64,000 nt of DNA, taken from the IMG/VR virus record IMGVR_UViG_3300023223_001973, positions 35,694 to 99,693 of that record. One strand, 5' to 3'. Position 1 is the first letter of the stretch. Each line of letters starts with the position of its first letter. The notes beneath the pieces are model-generated. The model was not told the DNA's origin, searched no databases, and saw only the letters and a program-made list of their open reading frames with translations. This DNA comes from a virus. The translations under genes were made by a program, and so were the position numbers. Below are positions 10,600 through 33,257 of the stretch, one piece after another.

Positions 10600-10888
10600 T
10601 CAACTGCGTGAGGCTATGATTAACCGACTTACTGAGAACCAGTCAGGAGGATCAACATCTCCTAATACCCCACCCCCAGTTCCTATCCATGATCAACCTG
10701 TTGAGGAGTCCACTGAGGTACCTTCCGAGTCTAAGATCTTTGAGGGCATGGACCTGACCGAACTCCTTACCAGTCAGCTCAAAGATAGGGTTCCAACCAC
10801 AGGCATGTCACCAAGAGTCAGTGATGAGGTTCGTGAAACTGCTATTAAGAACTCTCAGATTGACTTAATCCGGACATTGAACCTGTGA
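10586..10888 (+). CDS. small prohead core/internal protein candidate
   Basis: Between portal and protease; leader ...MINRLTE and an ESKIFE motif. Confidence 0.5.
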   Translation: MSTHDQLREAMINRLTENQSGGSTSPNTPPPVPIHDQPVEESTEVPSESKIFEGMDLTELLTSQLKDRVPTTGMSPRVSDEVRETAIKNSQIDLIRTLNL

Positions 10889-11262
10889 ACCCGGAGCTGT
10901 TAAACCAGGTCACTTCTGCAGAGAAGTATTTCGAGAACACTCGGTATCATAGGGAGTTAACTGCTGTTCTTGATGCGTTTAAGCGCGAGGATGAGGCAGA
11001 ACTGAAGGTATCCCTTAGCAAGTTACCGACGTACTCCGAGCTACTGAAGACGTTGATTCGGAAGCTTAAAGGTAAGTCGGTGTACAGTACCTTGAAACGC
11101 TTGTCTACGGGGAATCCAAGGAGTAAGTGGGATGCGTTGAAGGGGCTTACTTCTCTGGCAACTCATGCCTGTATTGAGTGTGAGAGGGGGAGTACTGAGT
11201 ATCGCTTGGTTTTAGCTCATCTTTACGAGAAGATTGGTGCTAGTCTGTTTTCTAAGGAGTGA
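10885..11262 (+). CDS. hypothetical protein (head module)
   Basis: 125-aa ORF with GTGA overlaps at both ends. Confidence 0.6.
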   Translation: MNPELLNQVTSAEKYFENTRYHRELTAVLDAFKREDEAELKVSLSKLPTYSELLKTLIRKLKGKSVYSTLKRLSTGNPRSKWDALKGLTSLATHACIECERGSTEYRLVLAHLYEKIGASLFSKE

Positions 11263-14625: not shown

Positions 14626-16116
14626 ATGAAGAATAATAACGAAGCTATTGCGGCAGCAGTACAGAGTCGCATGGATGAGATGACGAACCGTCGTTCAGCT
14701 CTGGTTAATAGCTGGGCCAAGTACGTCAACGCCGTGGATACCTACGTCAAGGAGAAGCGGGGTAACTCCCTGTCGGACTGGGAGAAGATGAACATCGCCC
14801 AGTGTCTCGAAAACGCTCTTATTGAGGGTGGGCTTCGCCAGAATGCCCTGTTCGAGACGACCTTCGCCGACAACATCACCTTCCTGGGCATTCAGCTGCC
14901 CGTGATTGCTGCCTTGCTGCCGTCTCTCGTGCTGAACGAGATCGGCATGGTGCAGGCTCTGGATCGCCGGCAGGGTGCGGTGTTCTATCTGGACCTGCAG
15001 TATGGTACCACGAAGGGTAACGTGGCCTCCGGAACGGACATGATCAACGCCCAGACGGGCCATGATCGGACCACGCAGGGTCGGAGGTTTGCTACGAACC
15101 GAATCAATCAAGAAGCCCTCGGCACTGGTGACGGATCGACGGCCACCTTCGCCGGGACTCTGGACTTCAAGCCCGTGAGAGTAGATGGTGACGTCACAGT
15201 GCTTCCTGATGGCGCCATTTCGATCACTGATGGTCTTGAGACCTTCACGGACTCCACGGGGAGTGGGACGCTCACTGGCGACCTTGGTGGCACGGGTACC
15301 ATCACATACGCCACAGGCGTGTTCAGCGTCACCTTTAACACCGCTCCTGTGTTGGCTGCCGTTGTCTCCGCGTCCTACCGCTTCAACATGGATCGGGATA
15401 CGACCGGGATCGGTGAGGTCAACGTCTCGATGCGGTCCGAGAATATTACCGCTGAGGACTTCAAGCTGCGGGCAAACTTCTCCCTGGGTGCAGCCATTGA
15501 CCTGGAGAAGGCACATGGGCTGAAGTTGGAGTCCGAGCTGGTCAAGTTCCTGGGTGGAGAGATCAAGTTCGAGATTGACCACTTGGGTATCGACGTGATC
15601 AGGGAAGCTGCGGAAGGGGCCAATGCAGCCACGGCGGTGGGTACCTGGACCGCTACCCCGACCGATGGACAGGAATGGCTCTGGAAGAAGTACGAGTTCA
15701 ACGACCAGATCGAAAAGGGCTCGAACTTCATCTTCGCCAAGACGTTGCGCGGGATGGCGACCTTCATCCTATGCGGAAACAACGTGGCGCGGGTATGCAA
15801 GCAGCTGACCCCGCACTTCAAGGCAGCCCCGGGTCTGGACAAGCAGAAGCCCACGGGCCCGATGGTTATCGGCACACTCGACGGCCGCACCGTGGTTCAG
15901 GACCCCTTCCTCCCGATCAACCGGTACTACCTGGGATTCAAGGGTGACAGTTACCTGTTCTCCGGCTTCATATATGCCCCATACATTCCGCTGTTCGCAA
16001 CCCCCACCCTGGTAACCGCTGACACCCTTGCCCAGAAGGGCTTCTTCAGTGCTGCCGGCTTCAAGATGATTAATGAAGGTCTGTACAACTTCGGCGATAT
16101 CGCAGGCCTGCTCTAA
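14626..16116 (+). CDS. major capsid protein, T4 gp23-like
   Basis: IGMVQAL, AVFYLDLQYG, KLRANFSLGAAIDLEKAHGL, EIKFEID, GFIYAPYIPL; strong SD AAGGAG; followed by a terminator. Confidence 0.93.
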   Translation: MKNNNEAIAAAVQSRMDEMTNRRSALVNSWAKYVNAVDTYVKEKRGNSLSDWEKMNIAQCLENALIEGGLRQNALFETTFADNITFLGIQLPVIAALLPSLVLNEIGMVQALDRRQGAVFYLDLQYGTTKGNVASGTDMINAQTGHDRTTQGRRFATNRINQEALGTGDGSTATFAGTLDFKPVRVDGDVTVLPDGAISITDGLETFTDSTGSGTLTGDLGGTGTITYATGVFSVTFNTAPVLAAVVSASYRFNMDRDTTGIGEVNVSMRSENITAEDFKLRANFSLGAAIDLEKAHGLKLESELVKFLGGEIKFEIDHLGIDVIREAAEGANAATAVGTWTATPTDGQEWLWKKYEFNDQIEKGSNFIFAKTLRGMATFILCGNNVARVCKQLTPHFKAAPGLDKQKPTGPMVIGTLDGRTVVQDPFLPINRYYLGFKGDSYLFSGFIYAPYIPLFATPTLVTADTLAQKGFFSAAGFKMINEGLYNFGDIAGLL

Positions 16117-16140
16117 ATCACGAAGCATACAAAGTTGCTA

Positions 16141-16182
16141 AGGAAGGGGGAGGACCTAAAATCCTTCCCCTTCTTTCGTTTT
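16141..16182 (+). terminator. rho-independent terminator after MCP
   Basis: AGGAAGGGGGAGGA-loop-TCCTTCCCCTTCTT followed by TCGTTTT. Confidence 0.8.
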
Positions 16183-16326: not shown

Positions 16327-16770
16327 ATGATCACTGAACGTATGGTTTGTTCTTCTAACATGAAGCTTGGTGCTAACAAGAAGGTCTATGACCTTAAGGC
16401 TCATGTTCCTCAGGAAGTTGAGTTTGCTGATAAGGCTGAGCTGGATGCTCTTAAGGCTGTAATACCCGGGTTTACGGTCGCTCCTATCGCTCCTGCTGGC
16501 CCTGGTGTTGAGAACTTGTCGGCTCCTGCCACTCCTCCTGCACCACCCCCGGTTCCTACAACTATTCCTCCTACTCCTCAGCCTCCTGAAGAGGTAGATG
16601 ATTCCAAGGACCCACGTCTTCCCAGTGACACCGGTGGCGAGGTTAAGCTGCTGACTGGGTTGAAGTCGATGAAGAAGGCTGAGCTGATCAAGCTCTGTAC
16701 AGATAAGGGGTTGGATTCCAAGGGAACTAAACCTGAACTGGTCGAGAGGCTCGAAGCTTTGCAGCTCTAA
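16327..16770 (+). CDS. SAP/HeH-domain protein with Pro-rich linker
   Basis: C-terminal LKSMKKAELIKLCTDKGLDSKGTKPELVERL. Confidence 0.75.
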   Translation: MITERMVCSSNMKLGANKKVYDLKAHVPQEVEFADKAELDALKAVIPGFTVAPIAPAGPGVENLSAPATPPAPPPVPTTIPPTPQPPEEVDDSKDPRLPSDTGGEVKLLTGLKSMKKAELIKLCTDKGLDSKGTKPELVERLEALQL

Positions 16771-17822: not shown

Positions 17823-18620
17823 ATGAGCCGGGAACTGCTAGAAGTCACTCTAGATGCTCTCCTTAAGCAGCAGAGTTCTATTACACAGGCCTTTCCCCAG
17901 TTTTATGATAGGGTTAAGGCTATTGCTCGTAAGGGCGGAGTGCGACTGAAGGAGTTGAGACCTGATGGTGTATGGCGTTTCTCTTGCCAGTCAGGGACTA
18001 AACAAAATGTACGGTATGATGTCTTTGTTAGGTTCTCTGGGATCGGTAGGGCTATCGAGCAGGCTGCCTCTGATGCTCAGTATTGGAAGAAGGATAAGTC
18101 TGGCCTGAATGCCACGGCTCTAGCCAATGATGTTATCTACAACTCCGACATCCAAACCTACTGCGAGTGTCCCGCGGATCTATACTGGGCCCACCAGTAT
18201 ACTCGATCTAAGTCCACTTTTAATGCCAAGTACACGCTCGACATTACCCAAGCTCCGTCCAGAAACAATGTTGCTCAGAGAGGGGCCTTCTGTAAGCACA
18301 CCCAGCTGGTCATCGATGTCCTCCCGATGTACCATAGCTCGGTGGCTAAGTATCTTAAAGACCACTACGCCAAGGAGATGAAGGCTGCTGAGGATGTTAA
18401 TCGAACTGCGATTACTGGAAAGGAACCTGAAAAGAAGATCATAGTTCCTGGCGAGGTGAAGCCTAAGCCTGGGAAGAGGATTATTACTCCTACGGAAGAA
18501 CCTGAAGAGGAACCCGAGGAGAAGAAACCTAAGGAAGAGCCTGAGAAGGAGCCGGAAGAAGACGAGGAAGAGGAGACTGAGGAAGAGCCTGAAGACGAGG
18601 AAGAGGAGAATAAAAAGTGA
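17823..18620 (+). CDS. SWIM-type Zn-finger protein with acidic tail
   Basis: YCECPADLYW...GAFCKH; E/P/K-rich C-terminus. Confidence 0.65.
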   Translation: MSRELLEVTLDALLKQQSSITQAFPQFYDRVKAIARKGGVRLKELRPDGVWRFSCQSGTKQNVRYDVFVRFSGIGRAIEQAASDAQYWKKDKSGLNATALANDVIYNSDIQTYCECPADLYWAHQYTRSKSTFNAKYTLDITQAPSRNNVAQRGAFCKHTQLVIDVLPMYHSSVAKYLKDHYAKEMKAAEDVNRTAITGKEPEKKIIVPGEVKPKPGKRIITPTEEPEEEPEEKKPKEEPEKEPEEDEEEETEEEPEDEEEENKK

Positions 18621-19537
18621 ATGTTCCTGACCTGACCAATCGCATCATTAATGAGACGACGTTTGCTGATGCTATTGCCTTCCTCCCATCCCACCTTCCT
18701 GATATGAAGAAGGCTATTCTGCCTCTGACCAAGGATAAGAAGAAATGGAAGATAGAGATCCTTGAGCAGGACCTTGATACTTATTATGTCAAGTTTGAGG
18801 ACCGCCTGGCAGTCTCTGTCAAGAAGAGGTATATGGAGCACTTCATGAGGAACATATTTGGTTCCCGTGCTCCTGTTATCCAGCACATAATGGAGGTTGA
18901 CCTGTCATTATCTCTCTCGGAGGCTGTAGAGGACACTATTAAGGATGAGATGAAGCGTCTGAAGAGGGTGTTGAAGGGTCTGCCTAGGCGTAATCCTTAC
19001 CGTCAGAGTGTTGTGAATTTTGCTGCCTTTAAACAGTACTTGGGGCCTAATCTTCAGGATATAACAGGTGCTGAAGTTCTCATCAATCTCAATCAGTATG
19101 ACCAGGATGTTGACAACCTTCTGACAGCTGTGAAGAGGGAGTACAACGATGACTTGGGTCAACTCCAGTTGCTGATTCAGGCCATGGAGCAGTCCCGACC
19201 TGTCGGGCAGTTCCCCATCTTTGACCGGTATACCACATTTATGGGTGCAACACTACGCCGTCCTGACCCAGACGTAGAGTTGGAGTATCAGGTCGGTGTG
19301 TTTATGACCCAAGTACCGTTTGAGTCTGTCACTGCCAGTGATGATGAGTTCCTTGAAGAGTTAGATGATGCTTTGGTCAAGACTAGTGGGATGAAAGCTT
19401 ACCCCCGGGGTAAGAACTTTACTGGTGGGTTCTTCGTGAGTTTAGCTGATGAGATAATGGACGCTGAAGAAGAGGAGGAGCCTGCTGCTCCCCCTGAAGA
19501 GGAGGACGAAGATGGCGACGGCGAAGAAAGCCCTTGA
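18617..19537 (+). CDS. candidate diverged capsid-protein paralog (vertex-protein-like)
   Basis: NETTFADAIAFLPSHLP matches MCP FETTFADNITFLGIQLP. Confidence 0.5.
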   Translation: MNVPDLTNRIINETTFADAIAFLPSHLPDMKKAILPLTKDKKKWKIEILEQDLDTYYVKFEDRLAVSVKKRYMEHFMRNIFGSRAPVIQHIMEVDLSLSLSEAVEDTIKDEMKRLKRVLKGLPRRNPYRQSVVNFAAFKQYLGPNLQDITGAEVLINLNQYDQDVDNLLTAVKREYNDDLGQLQLLIQAMEQSRPVGQFPIFDRYTTFMGATLRRPDPDVELEYQVGVFMTQVPFESVTASDDEFLEELDDALVKTSGMKAYPRGKNFTGGFFVSLADEIMDAEEEEEPAAPPEEEDEDGDGEESP

Positions 19538-19937
19538 GGTTTATAAGGCTCTTCTCAGGGTCTTTGGTGATTATGCAGACGATGTCCCTGCCACTGGTGT
19601 TGATCGTTATTTTAACATGGCAGTGGAGAAGGGTCAGTCTGTCATTCCTCGGGATGAGAAGGCTCTTCAGATCCTACATTCTATCCTCTGTCAGGGGGAT
19701 CATACCTCAGCTTACAGGACCTCAGCCTTGCTGAATATGCGGTTTGCTGACCTTGCTGCTAACTATAGCCCTGTCTATGTGGATGGTGAGCATCAGGGTG
19801 AGGCCTACTGGAAGAAGGGTGATGATCTCTATGACAGGGTACAGGCGTTGTTGAATTTCGAGGGGCCGAAAGGGTCATGGACTGACGCTGAAGGTAAAAA
19901 CGTTACGGTTCAGATCCCTCCCCCTAAGGAGGAGTAA
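19512..19937 (+). CDS. hypothetical protein
   Basis: 141-aa ORF, SD GGAGGA, fills the gap. Confidence 0.6.
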   Translation: MATAKKALEVYKALLRVFGDYADDVPATGVDRYFNMAVEKGQSVIPRDEKALQILHSILCQGDHTSAYRTSALLNMRFADLAANYSPVYVDGEHQGEAYWKKGDDLYDRVQALLNFEGPKGSWTDAEGKNVTVQIPPPKEE

Positions 19938-19939
19938 GG

Positions 19940-22900
19940 ATGGATGCAGCTACTTCGCTTGAAGGTTTGCTTCAGGGGCTCATGACTGAGCTTGAAACGC
20001 AGGATCTCCACCCTGTTGCTGTTGTAGAGCAGGATGACATGGATCTTCCGCGGGATGCTCTTCCTGATGAGGAAGAGGAGCCTGAAGAGGATGATATTCC
20101 TGTTCCTGAAGAGCCAGAGGAGCTTGCTCCCGAGCTTCCTGAGATCACAGATGCCCTCGCCCAGGAGTTCTACGAGAAGTTAGAGGTACCCGATACCATC
20201 GAAGTCTCTGCTCTTAAGTCGGGCATGGAGGCTGAGCTTGAGCATTGGGAGACCTCTGGTGAGAGCATGGAAGTGGTTGCCCGCATTGCTGTTGATCACT
20301 TGCTTGAGTCTCCTACCTACTATGAAGCTCTGGCTGCTATGATAGCTGACCTTGAGGCTGAGCAGGGCCCGACCGATCCTGAAGAGCCTCTTGAAGAGCC
20401 AGAGGAACCTGTTGAAGAACCTGAAGAGGAAGAGGAGGAGCCTACTGAGTCTCGTGTTCAAGAGCAGGCTGGTTCTAAGTATGCTATGGGTGAAGTGGGG
20501 GAGTGGGATGCTATTAGTGTTAACCTGACTTCTGACCGGTTGGAGTTTACTTCTCATGATGAGAGTGAGGGTCCTGAGGGTTATGACTTCACGATGAAAA
20601 AGGAAGGGAACGAGTGGGTGGTTGATAGGGAGGAGACTTCTTATAATGTTCAAGGCAGTCATGTTCTTTGGCTTATAGCTAGTGGGTATAAGGATTGGGA
20701 TGAGGCAGGGGAGAAGGCTCCAAAGCGGGATGAGGATGTCCGTATTCCTGATGCTAAGATGTTCGATGCTGTGAAGCAGATGGCAGAGGAAGAGGCAGCC
20801 TCTCTTACTTTGGGATCTTCTGAGGGACCTGAAGAGGCCCGTATTCGTGAGCAGGCCGAGGGTGAGTCTGAGAATGTGTTAGGGCTCGAATGGAAGTACC
20901 CGAAGCCTGTTGCCCGCGTGGATCAGCTTGTCGCAGAGTATGGTCAGCCTCAGACTGTGGCTGATGATCGGGTAATCTGGACTGAAGGCATTGAACCCTT
21001 TAGCGAGATTAGGGTTGTTGATGAGGAGATACCTCATGATAAGCCCAAGCCTCATGCTGACTATCTTTATGCCTCCATGCCTTATAATGTTCCTGAGGAT
21101 AAGGTGGCTGACGTTGAGAAGATCAGTAAGTCGGTAATGTATGATCCTCTCAAGCAGGTCATTACAGCTCGCTGTGATAACATGGCTGCCAATGTTACAA
21201 GCCTGTATCTTGCCCAGCAGATAGCTGATGGTGAGATGACTGCTGATGAAGCCTCTGAGCAGTATGGTGACACCATTATGAAGGCTATGGAGGATGAGGC
21301 ACTGGTTCAGGACATGAAGGGCAAGCTCAAGCCTATGATGGGTGAACTACCTCCTGAGGATGGTGAGCCTGAAGAACGTATCGTGAATCCCATGATTGGT
21401 GCTAATGAGGCTAAGGGTGCCGTCAAGGGCCTTGCCAAGAAGGCTGGCCGCTCTGTTAAGAAGGCTGAGGAGATCTGGAAGTCCGTCAAGAAGGACTATC
21501 TCACGCGCAACAAGAAGACCGAAGATGAGATGACTGATCGTGACTGGGAGAAGGTTACTGGAGCAGTCAAGCACTCTCTCGGTCTTAAGGCTGGTGAGTC
21601 TCGTGTAAGTGAAGACAAGGGCTGGATTGCGTTTGGGAAGAACCATAATGAGTATGTCCTCCTAAGTGAGGATAGGGAGCAGTTCTGGGCTGGTAATGAG
21701 AAGGGCTGGACCAAGACCTATGAAGAGGCTAAGGTATTCTCCTCTCAAGAGGAGGCTGAGAAGGCTGCTAAGTCACTAGGCCTTGATCCCTATGAGTCTC
21801 GCGATAAGGAGTCCCGTGCTGATGAACTCCAGTCTGGTATGTTTATTGAGGGCCATGAGGGTGATGACATTAAGGAGCCCGACATTCCCAGGGATTTTGA
21901 TGAGGAAGAGTTTGAGGCCTGGCAAGAGGCTGGTGGTACCTCTCTAGCTGATCTTTCCTTAGAACAGCAGAAGAAGCTGTTTCAGGAGGAAGATTCTGGG
22001 GGACCCCCCGCTGACGAGACTAAGGGACGCGGATTTGGCTCTTCAGGAGTCTCTCGTGAGGAGGAGATGAAGGCTGAGGGAGCAGTCATGGATGCTGGTA
22101 TCAAGTATGATACCAAGAATTATGACATCGCTAATGGTCGCCTTGAGTTTGCACAGTCTTTACCTGGTCGAGGAGCTTCAGCTGATGTTGTCGCTGTCTG
22201 GGACCTGAAGGCTCATAAGCTTATTGACATGGAGGAAGGTAGAGTTCCTAATGTTACAGCTCCTGAGGCTGACAAGATTAAGGACCTTCGTGAACAGGGT
22301 TATATGCCTTTAGCCAAGGGTCTTACGCAAGAGGATGCTGATAATATGGCCAAGGTGAAGGATGGTGTGGTCTCTCCTGATCCTGAGAACCCTGAGAAGT
22401 TTATGGTCCTGGTTAAGGAATCTCTGTGGGAGGAAACCCCTTCTGAGGAAGGTCCTCCTAAGGAGGATAATGGTCCCCGTATTGAGTTCCGTAGTGAGGC
22501 TGAGGAGGATCTCTGGGATACTGAGCTGCTGGGTCAGATCTCGGATGGGGCTTATGAGAACTATCGTGGATCTCATTATCGGCACTGGGATCAGCTTCCT
22601 ACAAGGGTTAACCCTGATCTACGTCGTCCGCGGGTGGTTAACAGTCAGTATAAGAATTACTTCCCATTTCATAAGGACCTGATGGATGCCGTTGGTCCGC
22701 GGATGTTGAAGATTGTCAGGCGGACCATGCCTGAGGCTACTTCGGAGGATCTCCGCAAGATGCTGGTTCATATCAGCAATGCTGTGAGATACCCCGTTCG
22801 TGAGGTTAGAGAATCGATGCGTGAAGGATTGACCACTACTCCTAATGATGTTGCTAAGTCCGGTGGTGGTACCTTTGCCAAGAAGGGTGAGACTGTCCAA

Positions 22901-23932
22901 GCTGAGAGGATCTCTGATGAGTCTGGTGGCACGACATTGATCCTGACCAACCCTGAAGAGGGTACTCGTGAGATCCTCCAGTTTGAGTCTGAGCAGGCTA
23001 TGTCAGATGCTGGCTGGAAGGTAGAGGAGACCAAGATGAATGAGGAAGGCATTATACCTCCTGTGAAGCAAGGTAAGGACGAACCTCATCCTATCAAGGA
23101 TCCCATTGCATCCGATGTGGATACCTTGAAGGATAAGGACATGGAGGATGAGCGTGTGAAGCCTGCTGAGATGGACTTTGATGAGCAGGGTAAAATGTAT
23201 ATGGATGCTGTCCTCAGCACAGAGGGTTTGCCTGGCGCTGGACCGTCCGGTCAGGAAGGTACAACTGAATCTATGGAAGAGGCAGACGTACCTAAAGTAG
23301 CACTGCCTCGCGGGTTCCCAAAGTTGGATCAGGACACTTGGGAGAAGGCTGTTGCCTCGCTGCACAAGCGAGGTACCTTGAAGAAAGGTGATAAATACAA
23401 TTATGCAGCTCTTATAGCTGTGTATAGGAATATGGAGGCTAAGGCTGAGAGAGAAACAATGACGCCTACTAAGGAATTCCGGGATCTTCATGGGTTACTC
23501 TCTGGTTTAGGAGGTCCTGTGAATGAGCAGGGTAACTTCGCTGTTGCTCGTCCTGATGATATTGGGACTACTGAGGTTAGGGGAGATACATACTATCAGA
23601 CCTATGGTGGACCGGGTGGTAGTGAGCCTCCCATTCCTGAGTGGCTTCCCTCGGCTGTTGTCGAGCAGTTCAAACAAGCTTGGACGGATGAGTTTAAGGC
23701 CCAGGCTGAGGCAGAAGCTGGGGAGGGTGAGGACCTTGACGATGTGATGTTTAACATGTCTCAGACTACTTATGATGACGCCTCTGGGTTCCTTGTTGTG
23801 GGACCAAGTATGTCTGAGGATTTCTCAGGTGTTGATCACTGGACAGTGGGCCCCTTCAAGGCTCAGGTTAAGCTGCCTGGCTCTGAGGAAGAGTCAGCTG
23901 TTGAGGTTTGGGGTGGTATCTCTGGGGTGTAG
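19940..23932 (+). CDS. large acidic modular polyprotein, candidate internal virion protein; includes a DUF5661-like module
   Basis: 1330 aa; GMEAELEH...IAVDHLLESPTYY module; unrelated modules separated by ESRVQE, EARIRE, ESRVSE, ESRADE, ESLWEE and similar. Confidence 0.7.
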   Translation: MDAATSLEGLLQGLMTELETQDLHPVAVVEQDDMDLPRDALPDEEEEPEEDDIPVPEEPEELAPELPEITDALAQEFYEKLEVPDTIEVSALKSGMEAELEHWETSGESMEVVARIAVDHLLESPTYYEALAAMIADLEAEQGPTDPEEPLEEPEEPVEEPEEEEEEPTESRVQEQAGSKYAMGEVGEWDAISVNLTSDRLEFTSHDESEGPEGYDFTMKKEGNEWVVDREETSYNVQGSHVLWLIASGYKDWDEAGEKAPKRDEDVRIPDAKMFDAVKQMAEEEAASLTLGSSEGPEEARIREQAEGESENVLGLEWKYPKPVARVDQLVAEYGQPQTVADDRVIWTEGIEPFSEIRVVDEEIPHDKPKPHADYLYASMPYNVPEDKVADVEKISKSVMYDPLKQVITARCDNMAANVTSLYLAQQIADGEMTADEASEQYGDTIMKAMEDEALVQDMKGKLKPMMGELPPEDGEPEERIVNPMIGANEAKGAVKGLAKKAGRSVKKAEEIWKSVKKDYLTRNKKTEDEMTDRDWEKVTGAVKHSLGLKAGESRVSEDKGWIAFGKNHNEYVLLSEDREQFWAGNEKGWTKTYEEAKVFSSQEEAEKAAKSLGLDPYESRDKESRADELQSGMFIEGHEGDDIKEPDIPRDFDEEEFEAWQEAGGTSLADLSLEQQKKLFQEEDSGGPPADETKGRGFGSSGVSREEEMKAEGAVMDAGIKYDTKNYDIANGRLEFAQSLPGRGASADVVAVWDLKAHKLIDMEEGRVPNVTAPEADKIKDLREQGYMPLAKGLTQEDADNMAKVKDGVVSPDPENPEKFMVLVKESLWEETPSEEGPPKEDNGPRIEFRSEAEEDLWDTELLGQISDGAYENYRGSHYRHWDQLPTRVNPDLRRPRVVNSQYKNYFPFHKDLMDAVGPRMLKIVRRTMPEATSEDLRKMLVHISNAVRYPVREVRESMREGLTTTPNDVAKSGGGTFAKKGETVQAERISDESGGTTLILTNPEEGTREILQFESEQAMSDAGWKVEETKMNEEGIIPPVKQGKDEPHPIKDPIASDVDTLKDKDMEDERVKPAEMDFDEQGKMYMDAVLSTEGLPGAGPSGQEGTTESMEEADVPKVALPRGFPKLDQDTWEKAVASLHKRGTLKKGDKYNYAALIAVYRNMEAKAERETMTPTKEFRDLHGLLSGLGGPVNEQGNFAVARPDDIGTTEVRGDTYYQTYGGPGGSEPPIPEWLPSAVVEQFKQAWTDEFKAQAEAEAGEGEDLDDVMFNMSQTTYDDASGFLVVGPSMSEDFSGVDHWTVGPFKAQVKLPGSEEESAVEVWGGISGV

Positions 23933-23934
23933 TT

Positions 23935-24813
23935 ATGGAAGAGTTTGAGCCCCTCTTTAACTTTCTAATGGAAGGAAACGTCGGACCTCTCATTGAGCAG
24001 GAACCTGCCACTGGGATGAAGCAGGACCGTCTTCCACGTGAGGAGGCTCTCAAGCGCTTCGACCTTGTGAAGGCCACTCTTGTTGAGTTGGGGATTGACG
24101 CTGATGCCATAGAACCTGGTGGCTCCATACGACGGGGTAAGGACACTGTTGGTGATCTTGATGTTGGCATCTTCGACTATGACAAGATAAGCAAAGGATT
24201 CTACAGCCGGTTTGTTGAGACTATGAAGGCTAAGGGTCATGAGGTTACGCCTAAGACCTTGGGAGCCTCTCAGACCTCTCTTCTCATTGATGGGTTTCTG
24301 GTTGAGCTGAAGAAGTTCCCTACGGAGTCTTACGGTGCGGCCATGATCTTTATTACGGGTCCTGGCCAGTACAACCTTGACATGAGGGGCTGGGCTAAGG
24401 GTAAGGGCTACAAGCTGAATCGCTATGGTCTCTTTGATGCTGCCTCTGGTAAGATGTATCCCTCCGACAAGGAGGAAGGGATCTACAAGCAGTTGGGCAT
24501 CCCTTATGAGCAACCTAGTGCAAGGCTTAAGTTTAGTCCTCCACGTGAGGAGAGACCTGCAGACCCGAAGCCTGATGAGACTCAGATACCTGAAGAGCTC
24601 TGGAACAAGGTCCCTGATGACGTTAAGGCTAAGCTGAAAGACTTCGATGTTCCTGCCGTTGATGAGAACGGGATTCGACTGGGCAAGGACTTCCTCTGGA
24701 ACAAGAAGGTCAGGCAGAGGTACCATATCACATACTCCCAGGCGAAGAGGTCTGGTCAGGAGATGAAACCCAAGTTTGAGCTTCCTGCGGAGTTCAAGCT
24801 GGATCGCTATTAG
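23935..24813 (+). CDS. polX: minimal family X DNA polymerase (palm + thumb)
   Basis: GGSIRRGKDTVGDLD, FITGPGQYNLDMR, GYKLNRYGLF, EEGIYKQLGIPYEQPSAR. Confidence 0.85.
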   Translation: MEEFEPLFNFLMEGNVGPLIEQEPATGMKQDRLPREEALKRFDLVKATLVELGIDADAIEPGGSIRRGKDTVGDLDVGIFDYDKISKGFYSRFVETMKAKGHEVTPKTLGASQTSLLIDGFLVELKKFPTESYGAAMIFITGPGQYNLDMRGWAKGKGYKLNRYGLFDAASGKMYPSDKEEGIYKQLGIPYEQPSARLKFSPPREERPADPKPDETQIPEELWNKVPDDVKAKLKDFDVPAVDENGIRLGKDFLWNKKVRQRYHITYSQAKRSGQEMKPKFELPAEFKLDRY

Positions 24814-24821
24814 GAGAGGTT

Positions 24822-25127
24822 ATGTCCTTTGAAGAGATTTATGAGAAGGTAGAGGAAGCTCGACCTACTCAGGCTGACTATGAGAGATTCCAGCAGGAGT
24901 ATAAAACTTTTCTTGATGGATCTGGCCTAGATGGTGACATCAATAATGTCGCTGATGAGGTATTTTATGAGATATGGCCGGTCTCTGAGGAGGAAGAAGG
25001 AAAAGCTGTAGACTTTCTTCAGAGGCTTGCTTCTAAGTATAAAATGCGGTATAGCCACTATGGTACGAAGGGTGATGGACAGTTTCATAACCATTATGTA
25101 GCATGGGACTTACAGTGGATGGTTTGA
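24822..25127 (+). CDS. leader-tagged small protein (candidate internal protein)
   Basis: N-terminus MSFEEIYEKVEE; SD GGAG. Confidence 0.7.
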   Translation: MSFEEIYEKVEEARPTQADYERFQQEYKTFLDGSGLDGDINNVADEVFYEIWPVSEEEEGKAVDFLQRLASKYKMRYSHYGTKGDGQFHNHYVAWDLQWMV

Positions 25128-25139
25128 TAGGAGGTTGTT

Positions 25140-25706
25140 ATGGAGTTTGGTGATATCTTCGAGAAGGTGAACGAGGTTAAGATCAACGAGGGTTGGGAAG
25201 CCTACCCACTTCCTAAAACTCTAGAAGATCTAATGTATACCCTTAAGGGTATGAAAGTGGGTGAGTATGCTATTACTGATGTGGTGAAGAATAAGGGTGG
25301 AGAGGGTGTTACCATTACTGGTGAATGGGGTCCGGAGAAGGTTGATTTGTACCCTTGGGGTCCTAATGCTCTTGAGCTCAGTCTTTCTGGTGATATTTAC
25401 GAAGAGGGTGAGTATCCTGCTTCCCCAGAAAGGGGTCCTAGACTCAACCAGGATGCTAGTCTTTTTCAGGAAATGTTTGACGATATGAGGAACTTTGATG
25501 TTATTGATCAGACTAACTCTGATGTCTCTGTTGACAATATTGAGCGGCTTGGGTTTGGTGAGTATAAGACTGGTGAGGATGAAGCTGGTGAACCTGAGTA
25601 TACTATTCCTGTTGAGGTTCTTCAGAAGAGAATGGAAGAGGCCGACACTGGAGTTACTGAAGAGGCTGTATTAGATTTCATTGATGATCTTTTGACTTCT
25701 AGGTAG
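25140..25706 (+). CDS. leader-tagged acidic protein (candidate internal protein)
   Basis: N-terminus MEFGDIFEKVNEVKINE; SD AGGAGG. Confidence 0.7.
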   Translation: MEFGDIFEKVNEVKINEGWEAYPLPKTLEDLMYTLKGMKVGEYAITDVVKNKGGEGVTITGEWGPEKVDLYPWGPNALELSLSGDIYEEGEYPASPERGPRLNQDASLFQEMFDDMRNFDVIDQTNSDVSVDNIERLGFGEYKTGEDEAGEPEYTIPVEVLQKRMEEADTGVTEEAVLDFIDDLLTSR

Positions 25707-25714
25707 GATCAACT

Positions 25715-26269
25715 GTGTACTTTGATGAAATCTTCGACAAGGTGAATGAAGACTCTAATTACGTCTACACCGCTCAGGTAGACCTTGGCACCAATCGTAA
25801 AGGCTATCAGCAAATGGGCCCATACACTGTGCCTGAAGGGAAAACCTTTGCTGGTGATAATTATCCATCTGAGCAGGACTATATTGCTGATCTTATAGCA
25901 AAGGGTTATGATGAGACTGGGCAACTGAGGAATGTTACTGATCCTCGTTATAGTGTTCAATATGAGGCTCAAGTGAATGAGACTAACATGATAGGCTTCG
26001 CAGCTGGCACTCTCCCTCTTAAGGTTACTCAGGAGCAAGAGACAAGGGAGGTATGGACCTGTCCTCATTGTGATAAGGAAATTCAAGAGAAGACTCTCTT
26101 CTGCGAGGACTTGGATTCTAAGGAATACACTCATAGTCCTTGTAAAGGAAAGGTTTCTCTACCACAGACCACGGAGGGTGAGGATGATATTACTCGCTTC
26201 CTAAGTGGCAAGGATAGTCATGGCCAGGGTGAGGATGTATCCTTTTATGCTATGACCCCGAGAGGTTGA
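25715..26269 (+). CDS. leader-tagged protein with Zn-finger (candidate internal protein)
   Basis: N-terminus MYFDEIFDKVNE; CPHC...HSPC. Confidence 0.7.
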   Translation: MYFDEIFDKVNEDSNYVYTAQVDLGTNRKGYQQMGPYTVPEGKTFAGDNYPSEQDYIADLIAKGYDETGQLRNVTDPRYSVQYEAQVNETNMIGFAAGTLPLKVTQEQETREVWTCPHCDKEIQEKTLFCEDLDSKEYTHSPCKGKVSLPQTTEGEDDITRFLSGKDSHGQGEDVSFYAMTPRG

Positions 26270-26270
26270 T

Positions 26271-26552
26271 GTGTTTGGTGAGCTATATGAAGCAATTTTA
26301 GAGAAGCGTGGAACTGGAAAGAGGGCTCGTGTCCCTGGTATACTAGATGTACCAAGGGGTAGATCTGCCTTTAGTATGGGGATTGGTCATTATGTGAAGT
26401 TGGCCAAGCAGCATGGTAAGTCGAAGATCCTGAGTGCTCTCAAGAACCTGGAGCAGCTGAATAAGATACCGTTTCCTAAGTCTTCAGCTGCTGCGAATAA
26501 ACTGATTAACCGGCTTACAGCCTCTTCCAAGTGGAAGAAGCTCAAGAGGTAA
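26271..26552 (+). CDS. leader-tagged highly basic small protein
   Basis: MFGELYEAILE followed by a K/R-rich body. Confidence 0.65.
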   Translation: MFGELYEAILEKRGTGKRARVPGILDVPRGRSAFSMGIGHYVKLAKQHGKSKILSALKNLEQLNKIPFPKSSAAANKLINRLTASSKWKKLKR

Positions 26553-26553
26553 T

Positions 26554-26826
26554 ATGTTTCACGGCCTGTTTGAACGTTTGAGTGAGGATCAAGAGCACGG
26601 CCGCGTTCTCCTCATTAAGATGAATGAAGAGGGTTATGAGTCTCTGATGCCTATGCTACAGCATCTAGAGAATGCTGGCAACGTTGGACACTCTCTATCT
26701 GTGGAAATGGATGATGACAAGTATGGGTGGGATGGTGACGGTAATGCTAGGATCTTGGGAATTATTGACTTAACTGCTGAAGAGGTCAAAGCGGCTTCTG
26801 AAGCTGAGCCTGTTGAAGGAGAGTAA
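26554..26826 (+). CDS. leader-tagged small acidic protein
   Basis: MFHGLFERLSE; GNVGHS...GWDGDG motif. Confidence 0.65.
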   Translation: MFHGLFERLSEDQEHGRVLLIKMNEEGYESLMPMLQHLENAGNVGHSLSVEMDDDKYGWDGDGNARILGIIDLTAEEVKAASEAEPVEGE

Positions 26827-26827
26827 G

Positions 26828-28114
26828 ATGTCGGACAAGAATCCTAACCTTGGTTTCCAGGGCTTGCTTGAGTCCATGAATGCTGTGGAGCTCAATGAAG
26901 AGACTCTCCCTGTGGAAGAGGCCCGTATTAATGAAGTCTTAACTTCTGATGAGCGGAAAGCTATTAATGATTGGCTTGAGCCTTATGACGCTCGGTTGAT
27001 GCCGCATGACTCCTCCGCTGAAGATGATGTGATGATCTCAACTAAGCGTCTTGAGAGTCCTGAGCAGTTTTCTAAGCTCCAGAGTGAGGCTGCGAAACGC
27101 TGGCCTCGCTTTGAATGGGATCAGGGTGGAGATTTCTTAGTGGGTAATGTGAAGGAATCCCGCGTTGATGAGGCTGTCCGTCAGCGTCGTAAGTGGTATC
27201 CTGATGGTACTGTTGAGGAAGAGATTGAGTGGGATGAGGACCACCATATGGCTGCTATGGCTGATGGTGCTAAGCTCCCTGAGAGTCTCGTGAAGGAGAA
27301 CGCTGAGGAGCTGATCGCCAAGTTCGTCCAGTCCGAGCATAAGAAGGACAAGGATCGTTATACCGTTGAGTATGGTGGTCAAACCTACACTGGCGAGAGT
27401 GTTGATGATCTCATCGAGCAGCTGACCTCTAAGGGTCCTGACGAGTCCAAGGTGGAGGAGAATGAGGAATATGATCCTAAGCAAACTCGGGGGGCAAATG
27501 CCGCTAATTGGATTAGGAACCGTTCTCGCGAGACAGGTGGGTGGGTCAATATCCCTTGGGGTGAAGGTGTTCGCTTTGGTTTGACCGATGTTGTTAAGGA
27601 TCAGGTTCCTGAGGGGGAGAAGATTGTTGGTGATCCTTCACAAGAGTGGATTCTTAATCAACCAGATGCTGAGTATGGTGATTATATGTATGAGCCTCCT
27701 CAGACTTTAACAGGGATTTATCTTCCTTATTTGGATGATTTTCAGGGAGATCCTTCTTTTGAGGAGATGATGACTGCCTTGAAAAGGGCAAATGAGAGTC
27801 AGGTAATTGAGCAAGGACCAGGAAGGAGGGGTGGCCCTGGGAGCACTCCTATAGTTCAGGTACCATTTGGTGCTGGTAGTGGCCCTGGAAGGAAAGATGG
27901 TCTGTTGTCGATCTCTGTTGTTAATGACGCTGATCCTCCTGAGTCCTGGCAATGGAACCTGAACATTTTGGTATCTACTGGCGATAGTGTTGAGTTGACG
28001 GGCGTGACTCCGGATTCGATTGAGACATTGATGATTCAGCTTGGACAGGCTAAGGATGAGCTTGCTAAGCAGCCTCCCTTTAAGGACAAGGACGAGTCTC
28101 TCGACTATGCTTAA
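26828..28114 (+). CDS. second modular acidic polyprotein (candidate internal protein)
   Basis: GFQGLLESMNAVELNE leader; EARINE, ESRVDE, ESLVKE, ESKVEE and ESQVIE junctions. Confidence 0.7.
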   Translation: MSDKNPNLGFQGLLESMNAVELNEETLPVEEARINEVLTSDERKAINDWLEPYDARLMPHDSSAEDDVMISTKRLESPEQFSKLQSEAAKRWPRFEWDQGGDFLVGNVKESRVDEAVRQRRKWYPDGTVEEEIEWDEDHHMAAMADGAKLPESLVKENAEELIAKFVQSEHKKDKDRYTVEYGGQTYTGESVDDLIEQLTSKGPDESKVEENEEYDPKQTRGANAANWIRNRSRETGGWVNIPWGEGVRFGLTDVVKDQVPEGEKIVGDPSQEWILNQPDAEYGDYMYEPPQTLTGIYLPYLDDFQGDPSFEEMMTALKRANESQVIEQGPGRRGGPGSTPIVQVPFGAGSGPGRKDGLLSISVVNDADPPESWQWNLNILVSTGDSVELTGVTPDSIETLMIQLGQAKDELAKQPPFKDKDESLDYA

Positions 28115-28538
28115 AGATCTTCTCGAAAGACTGACTGAGCAGGAGGAGCCTGTACAAGAACATCTCCCCAAGGCTTGGGGTATTCTATACGCCAACCCCA
28201 ATCCTGATGACTCTCGCAAGCAGTGCCTTAACTGTATAATGTGGTCTAGGGACAACCGTTGCAGCATTCATGAGTCTGATGAGGAGACTACAGAGGATCA
28301 CACCTGTGGGTACCATGTATATGGTAATCCCATGGAGGAGAGGATGGTCCATGAGGGTATGGATGCTGTAACTCCAGACCTGTCTGGCCTTGAACTCATT
28401 CCTGGTGGTACCAGCTGCGACATCTGTGAGTACTATGTGGAGGACTCTTCAACATGCCGTGTGGCTGTTGGAGATGATGGCAAACACTTGCAGGTAGCCC
28501 CCAAGGGTTGTTGTGCACGATGGGATGCTAAGGAGTAG
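28107..28538 (+). CDS. leader-tagged Cys-rich protein with two HiPIP-like repeats
   Basis: MLKDLLERLTE; CLNC..W...C...C and CDIC..Y...C...VAPKGCCARW. Confidence 0.6.
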   Translation: MLKDLLERLTEQEEPVQEHLPKAWGILYANPNPDDSRKQCLNCIMWSRDNRCSIHESDEETTEDHTCGYHVYGNPMEERMVHEGMDAVTPDLSGLELIPGGTSCDICEYYVEDSSTCRVAVGDDGKHLQVAPKGCCARWDAKE

Positions 28539-28540: not shown

Positions 28541-29005
28541 GTGTCACGTCTTATCCCACAACAGACCATTGATACCCTTCGCCAGTACTCTACCATCGCG
28601 GTAGACTTGTATGGCATTGACTGCGATCTCTTCATTCCTAAGACTGAGCACCTGGAGATGCAGGAGGAGCTTGATATCTATGATGAGAAACCTGCAGGTG
28701 ATGATGGACTGAAGTATGACTACCACCAGACGACCGTCTATATTGATTGGGCACCCAATATCTATAGGCTTCGTGCCCTTGGCATCTTTGTTGAGGATCA
28801 GAAGCCTATTCTGGCCTGGTTCGACCCTCAGCTTATAGTCCCCAGGAAGTCATACTTCCGGATTAAGCTTGAGTTCCTTCCTAAGGATAGGTTCGCTACT
28901 AATGAGTTTGAGGTTGTAGAGAATGTTATTAAGGCATTGCATGATGCCAGTGTCGTCAATGCCTGGCTGATTGCCCCACGCCGCAAAGAAAAGACCAATC
29001 CGTAG
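28541..29005 (+). CDS. neck/head-closure protein (T4 gp14-like)
   Basis: AVDLYGIDCDLFIPK motif, size and position. Confidence 0.65.
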   Translation: MSRLIPQQTIDTLRQYSTIAVDLYGIDCDLFIPKTEHLEMQEELDIYDEKPAGDDGLKYDYHQTTVYIDWAPNIYRLRALGIFVEDQKPILAWFDPQLIVPRKSYFRIKLEFLPKDRFATNEFEVVENVIKALHDASVVNAWLIAPRRKEKTNP

Positions 29006-29094: not shown

Positions 29095-30171
29095 GTGACC
29101 GGTCTGCTTGAAAAGCCTCTTCGTTATCATCAGCTTGATCCAGGCAATGTTGTGGCTTTGGATCGAACTTATGTTGTGATGAATGAGGTCGATGGGAGCA
29201 AGATTCTTGTGTCCGCATCAGGCCCTGTCTTGAGGCTAGCCCCAAACGGGTGTCTCTATCGCGGCTCTGAGGTGATTGATCTGGATGAGTCCGCGGTCAG
29301 TTTTCCTCGTCCTACGCTGTCTCCCCTAGTCTGGGACAAGATGGATGATGGCGTCTATGAGCTTAAGCCTGATGTTCGTGGTTCTATTATGAAGAGGCTT
29401 GAGGCCTATCCAGGCTTTAACCTAGTGGATGCCGCTGAGGAGATCCATATTGTAGGAAGTATCGGAACCAACCAGTATGATGATGACTCCGATATTGATG
29501 TCCACGTGGTACCCCGCCTTGATGCCCTTCCTGATAATATGTCTCCTGAAGACTGGGTTACTGATGTTAAGCGCTTTAACCGAGTGGGTTTAACCCATAT
29601 TGGAGACCATCCTATTGAGCTGTATCTTCAGCTTGATAAGAGTCAGGACTTCCTGTCAGATGCTGTCTACGATTTTGATGACAGTGTTTGGAGGGTAGGA
29701 CCTCTTCTTCAGCCTCTGGACTTTGATCCATTTGAGGCTTATGGAGAGGCATATGACTCTATCAAGGAACTGGCTAGGGATACTGATGTTGCTCTTGGTG
29801 AACTGAAGCGTGATGTCATCGATTACCAGGTTGTGCGTGCTGCTATCTTCGAACTCCCACCTGAATATCATTCTAAGCTGCGTGATCGTCTTCAACAGAA
29901 GCTTGATGAGGTAGAGGCGAGTATTGATGAACTCCTGAAGGACAAGAAGGAGTGGATCGAGATGCGTCGTAATGCTTCCAAGCCTCTTACCAAGTCGCAG
30001 GCTATCCAGGATGTGGAGCTGGTCAGGAATTGGAAGGATAAGAATGCAAGGTTTAAGTTCCTGGTTCGCTTCGGCTATGTTAAGCTCATTACTGAGCTTG
30101 AACGCATGATTGAGGACAAAGAGCTGGATGACAGTGAGATAGGTGCTATCCAGCATTTAGTGGGGGTGTAA
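29095..30171 (+). CDS. Pol-beta-superfamily nucleotidyltransferase with C-terminal coiled coil
   Basis: IHIVGSIGTNQYDDDSDIDVHV (hG[S]...DxD) and HPIELY; start uncertain. Confidence 0.8.
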   Translation: MTGLLEKPLRYHQLDPGNVVALDRTYVVMNEVDGSKILVSASGPVLRLAPNGCLYRGSEVIDLDESAVSFPRPTLSPLVWDKMDDGVYELKPDVRGSIMKRLEAYPGFNLVDAAEEIHIVGSIGTNQYDDDSDIDVHVVPRLDALPDNMSPEDWVTDVKRFNRVGLTHIGDHPIELYLQLDKSQDFLSDAVYDFDDSVWRVGPLLQPLDFDPFEAYGEAYDSIKELARDTDVALGELKRDVIDYQVVRAAIFELPPEYHSKLRDRLQQKLDEVEASIDELLKDKKEWIEMRRNASKPLTKSQAIQDVELVRNWKDKNARFKFLVRFGYVKLITELERMIEDKELDDSEIGAIQHLVGV

Positions 30172-31109: not shown

Positions 31110-32672
31110 ATGGGTTTCTACGTATCACCTGGCGTGTTTACAAGAGAGATTGACCTTAGTGACATTGTTCCTAATGTTGCTACGTCAATCATGGCTCTCG
31201 TCGGTGCGCCTAACAGAGGCAACATTGATGAGCCTGTCCTCATCACCAACCTGGAGCAGTTCTACCGGGAGTATGGTGAGCCGGTGGTAGGAAACTACTT
31301 TGGTTATGCAGGCCTTGGTTATCTGACTCATGGTCAGCAGCTCCAAGCTATGCGTGTGGTCAATGGTGCACTGGTTGGTGGTCTTGAGATCAAGGAGGCT
31401 GGCTCCTCTCAGGATAATGCTGCCTTTGTTGTTGGCGAGGCTGACCCCACGACTCATTCCTTCGGTCTGGATGGTCTTTTAGCTATCTTCGCCAAGGACC
31501 CTGGGGTCTGGAATAATGGCCTCAAGATTATCTTGGACAATATCGATACCACGGAGCATACCTTTGACATCTCGGTGTTTGAGGTCAATGTTGACAACGT
31601 GGATGTGCTGAAGGAGAAGTTTACGGGATGCTCCCGTCAGACCAAGTTGGATGGGTTTGGCATCCAGGCCTTTGTCGAGGAGCGGGTTAACGAGTTCAGC
31701 AATTATATCCGGGTGCTGGACAATACCGCCGAGGTTGACACCATCGATCCAAAGGAGCAGGCTACCGCACTGGCTATGGCTGGTGGTACCAACGGTGCTG
31801 CCGTAACGGACGGCATCGTGAACATAGGATGGGATCAGTTTGCCAACCCTGAAGTAATCAACATCAATCTGTTGGTAAGTGGTGTGGCTCCGACGGTGGC
31901 TATCTCTAACAAGATGATTGCCCTTGCTGAGTCCCGGCTGGATTCTATAGCCCTCCTGGATATACCACTTACTGATAATACTGTGACAGAGATGACGACT
32001 TACCGCAGTACCACCCTTAATGCAAATACCAGCTATGCTGCCCTGTACAGTCACTGGATCAAGATATTTGACCAGTGGAATGATCAGGTGGTCACTATTC
32101 CATCTACAGGCTTCGTGGCAGGGCAGTTTGCCTTCAATGACTTCATCAGGGACCCCTGGTTTGCGGCTGCTGGATTCAACAGAGGTCGCTTGAATGTCCA
32201 GGGTGTGAATGTGGTCTTCTCGGAGGGTGACCGTAACACGCTCTATCCTGTTCAGATCAATCCCATCCAGTCCTTTAAGGGTGAGGGTATTGTGATTTGG
32301 GGAACCAGGACTCTCCAGGTCAAGCAGTCTGCTCTCAGCCAGATCAGTATTCGACGGATGCTGATTACTATTGAGAAGTCTGTATCCACGGCTCTCAAGT
32401 TCTTCGTCTTCGAGCCTAACGATGATGCAACTCGCCTGCGGATTACCTCGATGGTTGAGGAGTTCTTAGAAGTGGTCTTGCAGCGTCGTGGTCTGGAGGA
32501 GTTCTCGGTGGTCTGTGATGAGACCAATAATACTCCTGCTGTGAGGGAGAGGGGTGAGCTGCTTGTTGATGTGTTCATCAAGCCTGTCTTCCCTGCAGAG
32601 TTCATTCAGCTCAGTATGATCATCACCCGTCTTGGTGCAAGCTTCGAAGAGACACTTGCTCTGGGAGCATAG
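31110..32672 (+). CDS. tail sheath protein (gp18-like)
   Basis: YVSPGVFTREIDLS, PWFAAAGFNRG, INPI, IWGTRTL, ISIRRMLITIEK, FVFEPND, CDETNNTP. Confidence 0.95.
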   Translation: MGFYVSPGVFTREIDLSDIVPNVATSIMALVGAPNRGNIDEPVLITNLEQFYREYGEPVVGNYFGYAGLGYLTHGQQLQAMRVVNGALVGGLEIKEAGSSQDNAAFVVGEADPTTHSFGLDGLLAIFAKDPGVWNNGLKIILDNIDTTEHTFDISVFEVNVDNVDVLKEKFTGCSRQTKLDGFGIQAFVEERVNEFSNYIRVLDNTAEVDTIDPKEQATALAMAGGTNGAAVTDGIVNIGWDQFANPEVININLLVSGVAPTVAISNKMIALAESRLDSIALLDIPLTDNTVTEMTTYRSTTLNANTSYAALYSHWIKIFDQWNDQVVTIPSTGFVAGQFAFNDFIRDPWFAAAGFNRGRLNVQGVNVVFSEGDRNTLYPVQINPIQSFKGEGIVIWGTRTLQVKQSALSQISIRRMLITIEKSVSTALKFFVFEPNDDATRLRITSMVEEFLEVVLQRRGLEEFSVVCDETNNTPAVRERGELLVDVFIKPVFPAEFIQLSMIITRLGASFEETLALGA

Positions 32673-32702: not shown

Positions 32703-33257
32703 ATGGGTAGAATGTCAGTTCAGACTCTTAAGGCTAACCTGCAGAACCCTGCCAGGATCTATCTATGGGAGATGTTCATTCCTATCGTTCCTGGTGGTGG
32801 TGACATTGATGCTCTGCGGACTCGCTGCCAGACTTCCGTCATTCCCGGGGTATCAAGTGGAAATATCCACATTGACTACAAGGGCACGGGAGGGTTCAAT
32901 GTGCCTGGTAGACTCCGGTTCCCGCAGACGATTACTCTTGAGTTCCTTGAGGGGGAAGATAGTAAAATCTTCGATACCATCAACAGCTGGCGTCAGCTGA
33001 TCACAGATCACCTCCTTGGTGTTGGTGAACCTGATGTTGTCGTGAAGGTTCCCATGTATCTGAAGCTCATTACCAAGCAGGATACAGAGTGGAATGGTAC
33101 TCTGTTCCAAGGTGCCTGGCCACAGGACCGGGCTGATGTCCCTCTAAATTACACCACAGATGCGGAGGTCAGGTTCTCGGTTACCTTCCAGTATGACTTG
33201 TGGACTCCGATATCCACAGCGGCCGGGGCAGATCAGGTCTCGCGTCTCGTCGTTTAA
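32703..33257 (+). CDS. tail tube protein (gp19-like)
   Basis: After the sheath; CQTSVIPG, GAWP, FSVTFQYD. Confidence 0.85.
   Translation: MGRMSVQTLKANLQNPARIYLWEMFIPIVPGGGDIDALRTRCQTSVIPGVSSGNIHIDYKGTGGFNVPGRLRFPQTITLEFLEGEDSKIFDTINSWRQLITDHLLGVGEPDVVVKVPMYLKLITKQDTEWNGTLFQGAWPQDRADVPLNYTTDAEVRFSVTFQYDLWTPISTAAGADQVSRLVV

Follow-up and report, generated by a model that had tools for sequence, protein, structure and literature searches.

In phage T4, the internal proteins IPI, IPII and IPIII and the protein Alt carry a short N-terminal capsid-targeting sequence (CTS), which is removed by the prohead protease gp21 (Mullaney and Black 1996, as reviewed in PMC9026906, PMC3012670, PMC5694885). 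In the CTS of IPIII, residues 4 and 7 serve targeting and residues 8 and 10 processing, and an Asp at position 10 still targets the protein but blocks cleavage (PMC9026906). The internal proteins of T-even phages are diverse and unrelated, with only the CTS conserved (PMC3012670, PMC9026906). In the giant phages phiKZ, SPN3US and 201phi2-1, many head proteins, enzymes included, have propeptides that are cut by a gp21-family protease after x-x-E, with multiple sites per protein (PMC5694885), and in phage P1 an N-terminal signal of 30 residues or fewer, as on DarB, suffices to bring a protein into the head for delivery (PMC9024508). In this work, we analyzed a short N-terminal leader shared by consecutive genes at positions 23935-28538 of a 64-kb window, bases 35,694-99,693 of the single 99,693-bp contig IMGVR_UViG_3300023223_001973. 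Genome-wide, 126 proteins were predicted (30,875 positions scored), 67 of them in the window, and the + strand carries nearly all genes.

The leader is 11-13 residues long, follows the consensus F-x-x-[IL]-[FYL]-[ED]-x-[VLI]-x-E and begins seven genes of the block (23935, 24822, 25140, 25715, 26271, 26554 and 28107), which comprises, with protein lengths in amino acids (aa) and isoelectric points as pI:

23935-24813, + strand: minimal family-X DNA polymerase (Pol X) with palm and thumb and a C-terminal extension of ~95 aa; leader at residues 1-13 (PF14791, 5.5e-17; PF14792, 1.8e-6)
24822-25127, + strand: 101-aa acidic protein; leader at residues 1-12; no family match, no homolog in the relatives' loci
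25140-25706, + strand: 188-aa acidic protein with the top-scoring leader; no family match, no homolog in relatives
25715-26269, + strand: 184-aa leader-tagged protein with four Cys (CxxC...C...C) and a GTG start
26271-26552, + strand: 93-aa very basic leader-tagged protein, body pI 11.9
26554-26826, + strand: 90-aa acidic leader-tagged protein; weak phrog_10928 match
26828-28114, + strand: acidic protein of 428 aa; leader offset and degenerate; E-[SA]-[RKL]-[VI]-x-E junction motifs at four internal places; no family or Atlas match
28107-28538, + strand: 143-aa leader-tagged Cys-rich protein (9 Cys), whose start overlaps the upstream stop codon

The initial annotation had described near-identical leaders on eight consecutive genes, and all eight N-termini that it quoted are present at those genes. 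Seven of them are leaders in the full sense, but the eighth, at 26828, proved to be an offset, degenerate copy, with the motif running from residue 10 (...LLESMNA) and followed by VELNE. The regular expression [FYLM]..[ILV][FYL][EDN].[VLIM].E had seven matches among the window proteins, each at residue 2-4 of one of the seven genes. A matrix built from the seven leaders scored them at 18.8-28.5, the next best position in the genome reaching 13.7, and when each leader was left out in turn five of the seven ranked in the top 11 and the other two at 25 and 51. Enrichment against non-head genes was also checked, and neither the regular expression nor the matrix placed the motif in tail, replication or any other genes. 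The feature is real and statistically unambiguous.

The bodies behind the leaders showed no significant similarity to one another in an all-against-all BLASTP comparison (best E-values 0.01-0.4). The leaders themselves differ in synonymous codons and the DNA upstream of the starts is unconserved; a Shine-Dalgarno-like purine run precedes six of the eight block starts. Because the codons differ synonymously, the leader is conserved at the peptide and not the DNA level, which speaks for selection on the peptide at true N-termini.

Each of the seven leaders terminates in V-x-E, I-x-E or L-x-E, and [VLI]-x-E is the cleavage rule of T4 gp21 (PMC5694885, PMC9026906). By its genes, the source is a tailed phage with a T4-type head module, a distantly T4-like member of an uncultured lineage. 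The head-module and flanking genes on which the argument draws are:

8788-10599, + strand: gp20-like portal protein (PF07230, 6.7e-26; phrog_1497, 2.3e-30)
10586-10888, + strand: small acidic protein in the T4 gp67/gp68 position, with a leader-like N-terminus and one junction motif (motif scan)
11259-12962, + strand: 567-aa low-complexity protein between portal and protease; start leader-like, up to M-R-E; C-terminus rich in Arg; one junction motif
12991-14592, + strand: prohead protease with an S77/gp21-like domain (~1-200), a Cys4 knuckle and a helical scaffold-like tail (phrog_207, 2.4e-28)
14626-16116, + strand: gp23-like major capsid protein with a predicted propeptide junction ...LFE77/TTFAD (PF07068, 3.6e-39)
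17823-18620, + strand: conserved leader-bearing protein with a C-x-C-P...C-K-H (SWIM-like) motif and a 7-residue leader (8/10 related loci)
18617-19537, + strand: conserved 306-aa head-module protein with a 13-residue leader ending I-N-E, then TTFAD as in the capsid protein
19512-19937, + strand: conserved 141-aa gene that borders the variable region upstream; found in each of the ten related loci searched (alignment A1)
19940-23932, + strand: hyper-acidic modular protein of 1330 aa; looser leader, DUF5661 module and five junction motifs of the form E-[SAT]-x-[VIMW]-x-E
28541-29005, + strand: conserved 154-aa gene, the downstream border of the variable block (8 related loci)
29095-30171, + strand: conserved nucleotidyltransferase (NTase)-fold protein with a 65-residue N-terminal extension ending at an invariant Glu-Ser junction (alignment A5)
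31110-32672: tail sheath
32703-33257: tail tube

The protease at 12991-14592 aligned with T4 gp21 (taken from NC_000866) in BLASTP with an E-value of 3e-5. Its long helical tail, which looks like a scaffold, holds 25 [LIVM]-x-E candidate sites, the top density among proteins of more than 200 residues. In the gp21 alignment GHAEHP falls on GELNH85P and GCSTR on GVS140SR, motifs that we take to hold the S77 catalytic His and Ser. The capsid protein junction, ...NALFE77/TTFADNITFLG, corresponds to ...FLTE65/AEIGG in T4 gp23, and relatives have ...LFE/TTY... and ...VFE/TTY... at the equivalent place. A six-member alignment of the 306-aa family shows the junction Glu to be invariant and the leader variable in length and sequence. 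A profile search with this family (alignment A2) returned 259 representatives; 80 of the 150 listed members fit the pattern of a Glu- or Asp-terminated leader ahead of a conserved TT(T)xxxIxYLPSGF, and in 76 of these 80 the leader has 30 residues or fewer, mostly 10-24. The junction Glu is likewise invariant in the 29095 family (A5), in which homologs from relatives carry short leaders and extensions of 6 to ~98 residues before the Glu-Ser, and in the 17823 family (A6), as Glu 7 at the end of the leader. Furthermore, of the 12 occurrences of the junction motif E[SAT][KRLM][VILMW].E across the proteome, all but one fall in head-module or block proteins: the 1330-aa protein has five, the 428-aa protein four, and proteins encoded between portal and protease another two. 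The conserved ...LFE/TT junctions and the invariant Glu of three families are consistent with the cutting of head proteins at a common motif. Looser versions of the leader had also been suggested at four genes outside the block; those at 17823 and 18617 hold up, given the invariant Glu at the leader end in both family alignments, and those at 10586 and 19940 are plausible but weaker.

Related loci, metagenomic and from IMG/VR, were retrieved through the conserved 141-aa gene (19512) and the 306-aa family, and the identity of their capsid proteins to that of the window is 54-59% or less. In ten such loci, tblastn found no homolog of any of the eight block genes, whereas the flanking genes 16786, 17823, 18617, 19512, 28541, 29095, 30173 and 30459 are each conserved in six to ten of the ten. 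For this reason the block is a hypervariable island of putative cargo in which the leader is the only constant, and the variable cargo behind a constant leader that the initial annotation had proposed to look for in related genomes was indeed seen. Each related locus has, at the equivalent position, several genes with a leader variant of its own (e.g. MRELVT.L.E, MKKLLE..L.E or M.ELLEKML...NE). The matrix trained on the window reached a score of 8 or more at 4 of 138 N-termini and at 4 of 2374 internal windows in the relatives (at a threshold of 6, Fisher p ~9e-4). Leaders are more alike within than between genomes, the observed value being reached in 0 of 5000 label permutations, in a test for which the leaders were picked by eye and to which within-genome paralogy likely contributes. 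This likeness fits a co-evolution of the leader with a genome-specific receptor or protease.

Taken together, these results point towards the leader being the lineage's own T4-CTS-like propeptide for capsid targeting and processing, and to this reading, covering both targeting and cleavage, we assign a probability of about 0.7. A T4-like targeting tag had been proposed from the DNA letters alone; the proposal gains from the gp21-like protease, the [VLI]-x-E ends, the same junction in the capsid protein and in three conserved families, and the variable cargo in relatives. Its further parts fare less well: injection of the tagged proteins seems to us slightly short of an even bet, an anti-defence function is doubtful, and a takeover role, like retention in the mature head, is conjecture.

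A mechanism can be outlined on this basis. The block genes lie within the head-tail structural operon, where genes of the head region abut or overlap, and co-expression with the head genes is plausible, so that the tagged proteins would be made together with the head proteins. The leader would form a short amphipathic stretch in which the members of an aromatic/hydrophobic pair are spaced by three to four residues, and could dock the protein on the prohead core, most likely on the helical scaffold tail of the 12991-14592 protein. Once the shell had assembled, the gp21-like serine protease would, as motif and homology suggest, cut after the [VLI]-x-E of the leader, and it may also act within the 1330-aa and 428-aa proteins, at junctions of the E-S-R-V-x-E type. 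The mature bodies would stay in the head and might exit with the DNA, which is the weakest step. In such a scheme the block 23935-28538 would be the counterpart of the T-even internal-protein loci, with the minimal Pol X, one small basic and one Cys-rich protein, and five others.

Several observations weigh against a CTS-like propeptide. The matrix derived from the window scores the N-termini of T4 ipI, ipII, ipIII, gp22, gp24, gp67 and gp68 at 0.2 or less. The match of the 12991-14592 protease to Pfam S77 (PF03420; 4e-5, 23.6 bits) lies under the gathering cutoff of 27 bits. For the 306-aa protein, taken as a calibration protein, Foldseek against the PDB gave no match at E<=0.001 and no capsid protein among the matches listed, and hence no capsid fold. 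The selection by eye and the paralogy noted above reduce what the within-genome likeness can add. Packaging, cleavage, retention and ejection are all deduced from sequence. Besides, the internal proteins described for T-even phages are basic, whereas most block bodies have a pI of 4.1-4.7, for which reason some of these may belong to the core or scaffold and be broken down and expelled instead of delivered.

Carried further, this last point leads to an alternative in which the leader is a prohead-core assembly and processing signal and most tagged proteins are scaffold or core, chopped and expelled before DNA packaging like T4 gp22, gp67 and gp68. The acidity of the bodies, which T4 gp67 shares, argues in its favor, as do the similarly leader-like N-termini of gp22, gp67 and gp68 and the density of candidate cleavage sites in the 1330-aa and 428-aa proteins. 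However, neither a folded Pol X nor the conserved NTase-fold protein nor the basic protein of 93 aa would make a good scaffold, and scaffold genes are normally conserved, yet the eight block genes have no homolog in the ten related loci, the pattern of T-even internal proteins (PMC9026906). We regard this alternative as unlikely.

It is less probable still that the shared N-terminus is a tag for machinery other than the capsid, be it a modifying enzyme acting on ribosomally synthesized and post-translationally modified peptides (RiPP) or of the radical S-adenosylmethionine (SAM) type, a chaperone, or secretion or membrane targeting. The genome does encode a radical-SAM enzyme, but this is a class-B, B12-binding protein with no SPASM domain, encoded ~50 kb away in a glycosyl-/methyl-/sulfotransferase cluster, and a radical-SAM/RiPP tag was rejected on these grounds, this being the only radical-SAM gene. 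Read from their sequences, the leaders are acidic, with no hydrophobic core or twin-Arg motif, and hence are not signal peptides; moreover, proteins of up to 1330 aa bear the tag, all of them within the head module, and the tag ends in a head-protease motif that it has in common with the capsid propeptide junction. As to a by-product of recently duplicated gene starts, of recombination at start-codon DNA or of chance, the three most alike leaders (24822, 25140 and 25715) are indeed adjacent. Against such an origin, to which we give almost no credence, speak the synonymous codon differences, by which a DNA-level repeat or recombination is ruled out, and the unconserved upstream DNA, as well as the unrelated bodies, the absence of the motif from 30,000 other positions and the recurrence of leader variants in relatives with <60% capsid-protein identity.

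Compared with T4, the CTS-like propeptide proposed here has the same architecture, a short N-terminal propeptide on unrelated proteins in which a hydrophobic/aromatic pair is followed by [ILV]-x-E, in a phage that also has a gp21-family protease and gp20-/gp23-type portal and capsid proteins, with hypervariable cargo and a tag that is kept. As with T4 gp24, gp22, gp67 and gp68, structural and core proteins bear the same kind of leader as the cargo. The leader sequence differs, however (T4 ipII and ipIII begin MKTYQEFIAE and ipI begins MKTFKEF...ITE), and has 11-13 residues here versus 10. At least 12 proteins are tagged, versus about four cargo proteins with a CTS in T4 (IPI-III and Alt), and the cargo forms one island inside the head-tail operon, whereas in T4 it is scattered. 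Also unlike T4, most bodies are acidic, a Pol X and an NTase-fold protein are among the cargo, the protease continues into a scaffold-like tail, and the system is known from genes alone. T4 gp24 begins MAKINELLRE/STTT, to which ...IINE/TTFAD and ...IIRE/TTTS of the 306-aa family are a close parallel. Homology to gp24 is not supported all the same: the 306-aa protein was considered as a gp24-like capsid paralogue for the resemblance of its junction to those of gp24 and the capsid protein, yet its AlphaFold2 (AF2) model, with a predicted local distance difference test (pLDDT) score of 75, has no HK97 match. The propeptides of the giant phages are mostly longer than 100 residues, with an [AS]-x-E motif and no common short leader (PMC5694885), and occur in genomes of >200 kb versus ~100 kb here. 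The Dar proteins of P1 have no N-terminal consensus (PMC9024508), in contrast with the clear common consensus of this block.

That a constant tag can precede diverse cargo is not new, since T4 reviews already describe it for the T-even internal proteins (PMC3012670, PMC9026906). The principle has been known from T4 since the 1990s, and the gain lies in breadth and new cargo in a distant uncultured lineage, not in a new mechanism. If our reading is true, a short recognisable tag marks the capsid-loaded proteins of this lineage and would give, from sequence, a list of candidate injected proteins; the leader is nominated as a compact lineage-specific packaging tag for protein delivery, and a mini Pol X, if packaged, would be unusual among virion enzymes. 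Complete turnover of the island between relatives is the pattern expected of arms-race genes. It is tempting to speculate, as a possibility that we hold to be rather improbable, that each genome of a large uncultured lineage (at least 259 family clusters) has in its leader an address code of its own, evolving in step with scaffold and protease, by which a packaged and possibly injected proteome could be read from sequence. In this phage, that proteome would extend to the minimal Pol X and an NTase-fold enzyme, both entering with the DNA. Were this so, the two enzymes might, for instance, act by repair or modification on the incoming genome or on host targets ahead of phage gene expression.

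Regarding the individual block genes, an enzyme-containing payload had been anticipated, and one recognisable enzyme, the Pol X, bears this out, whereas the other block genes are not recognisable as enzymes; for six of the eight, no function was detectable with Pfam, PHROGs, NCBIfam and two Atlas look-ups, which gave nothing firm. The Pol X of 23935 has PDB matches to Thermus PolX (8e-15), to Pol lambda/beta and to Pol X of the African swine fever virus (ASFV) type. It aligns with Thermus PolX residues 182-314, including GSxRR...GDLD, the palm GS...DxD motif, and has neither 8-kDa, fingers nor PHP domains. Homologs at 71% and 61% identity retain the leader with conservative changes, while bacterial PolX enzymes align to the palm-thumb half only and cellular PolX has no leader, so that 23935 looks like a cellular polymerase domain captured behind the tag. 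The 26271 protein is the sole cargo resembling the basic internal proteins described for T-even phages, and the 428-aa protein of 26828 is a candidate multi-module cargo. For 28107, the nearest Atlas clusters include viral ones with a HiPIP domain in a minority of members, one of them a portal-protein cluster, a weak lead towards an iron-sulfur (HiPIP-like) domain tied to phage heads.

The block had been placed between gp13-like and gp14-like neck genes, an assignment that we do not retain, as no Pfam or PHROGs neck-protein match at E<=1 was found for 16786, 17793, 18617, 19512, 28541, 30173 or 30459. Among the flanking genes, the 1330-aa protein of 19940 has isolated modules only in common with relatives (tblastn, ten related loci). 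The 29095 protein has an AF2 core with pLDDT ~90 and a GS...DxD motif in its sequence; its Foldseek matches, mostly NTases, are weak (best E 0.009), too weak to assign an NTase subfamily. The 306-aa protein gave nothing in cultured phages by tblastn, and a word-based homolog search returned only itself. In the 17823 protein the C-x-C-P ... C-K-H motif (a SWIM-type zinc finger) is invariant and the C-terminus is acidic and of low complexity; in two relatives the protein is fused to far longer C-terminal regions. An Alt-like ADP-ribosyltransferase was considered for this family and rejected, the NCBIfam match (E 0.004) lying far under the cutoff and the alignment showing a SWIM-like CxC...CxH.

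Within the head module, the 11259-12962 protein is acidic in its N-terminal half and Arg-rich in its C-terminal tail, with segments rich in Ser/Gln/Ala/Asn that recur, and may be an internal DNA-binding or core protein. The Cys4 knuckle of the protease reads CPKC...CEC and its tail is coiled-coil-like, the counterpart in relatives L001 and L002 having ~900 residues. Directly after the capsid gene, at 16140-16176, lies a strong terminator-like hairpin (15-bp stem, T-tailed), the only one in 14-33.5 kb and probably an attenuator raising capsid mRNA; predicted promoters and terminators across 14-33.5 kb were not commoner than in shuffles. The 147-aa protein right after the capsid gene (16327-16770) has a C-terminal SAP DNA-binding motif (PF02037, 9.3e-10), unusual in a head module.

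No close cultured phage was found, the best capsid-protein identity being 32% and a megablast search with 19-31 kb giving no match. The protein database places the window's proteins on a contig of 124,723 bases, compared with 99,693 for the genome analysed here, which may be incomplete. The cluster with the class-B radical-SAM gene (G000:C1:6000-14100, L018, outside the window) also encodes two glycosyltransferases, two methyltransferases and a sulfotransferase-like protein, and may be a DNA or surface-glycan modification module.

Three further observations concern the relatives. L007:1649-5106 and L010:2538-8582 encode several leader-tagged paralogues with a second motif just past the leader (...[DE]..FKP[AP][ST].[ED]E...), found in L014 too (IFKPPTEEE), which may be a second conserved propeptide element in some lineages. 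The 17823-family homolog L006:6872-8692 has a ~350-residue insertion precisely at the conserved C-K-H motif (...GAHC/FAGDT ... VHN/CKH), which looks like an intein. In the same locus (L006:929-4285), the capsid gene is in two open reading frames (929-2749 and 2882-4285), and additional sequence both separates and interrupts the matching parts, suggesting that an intron, intein or homing endonuclease has inserted there.

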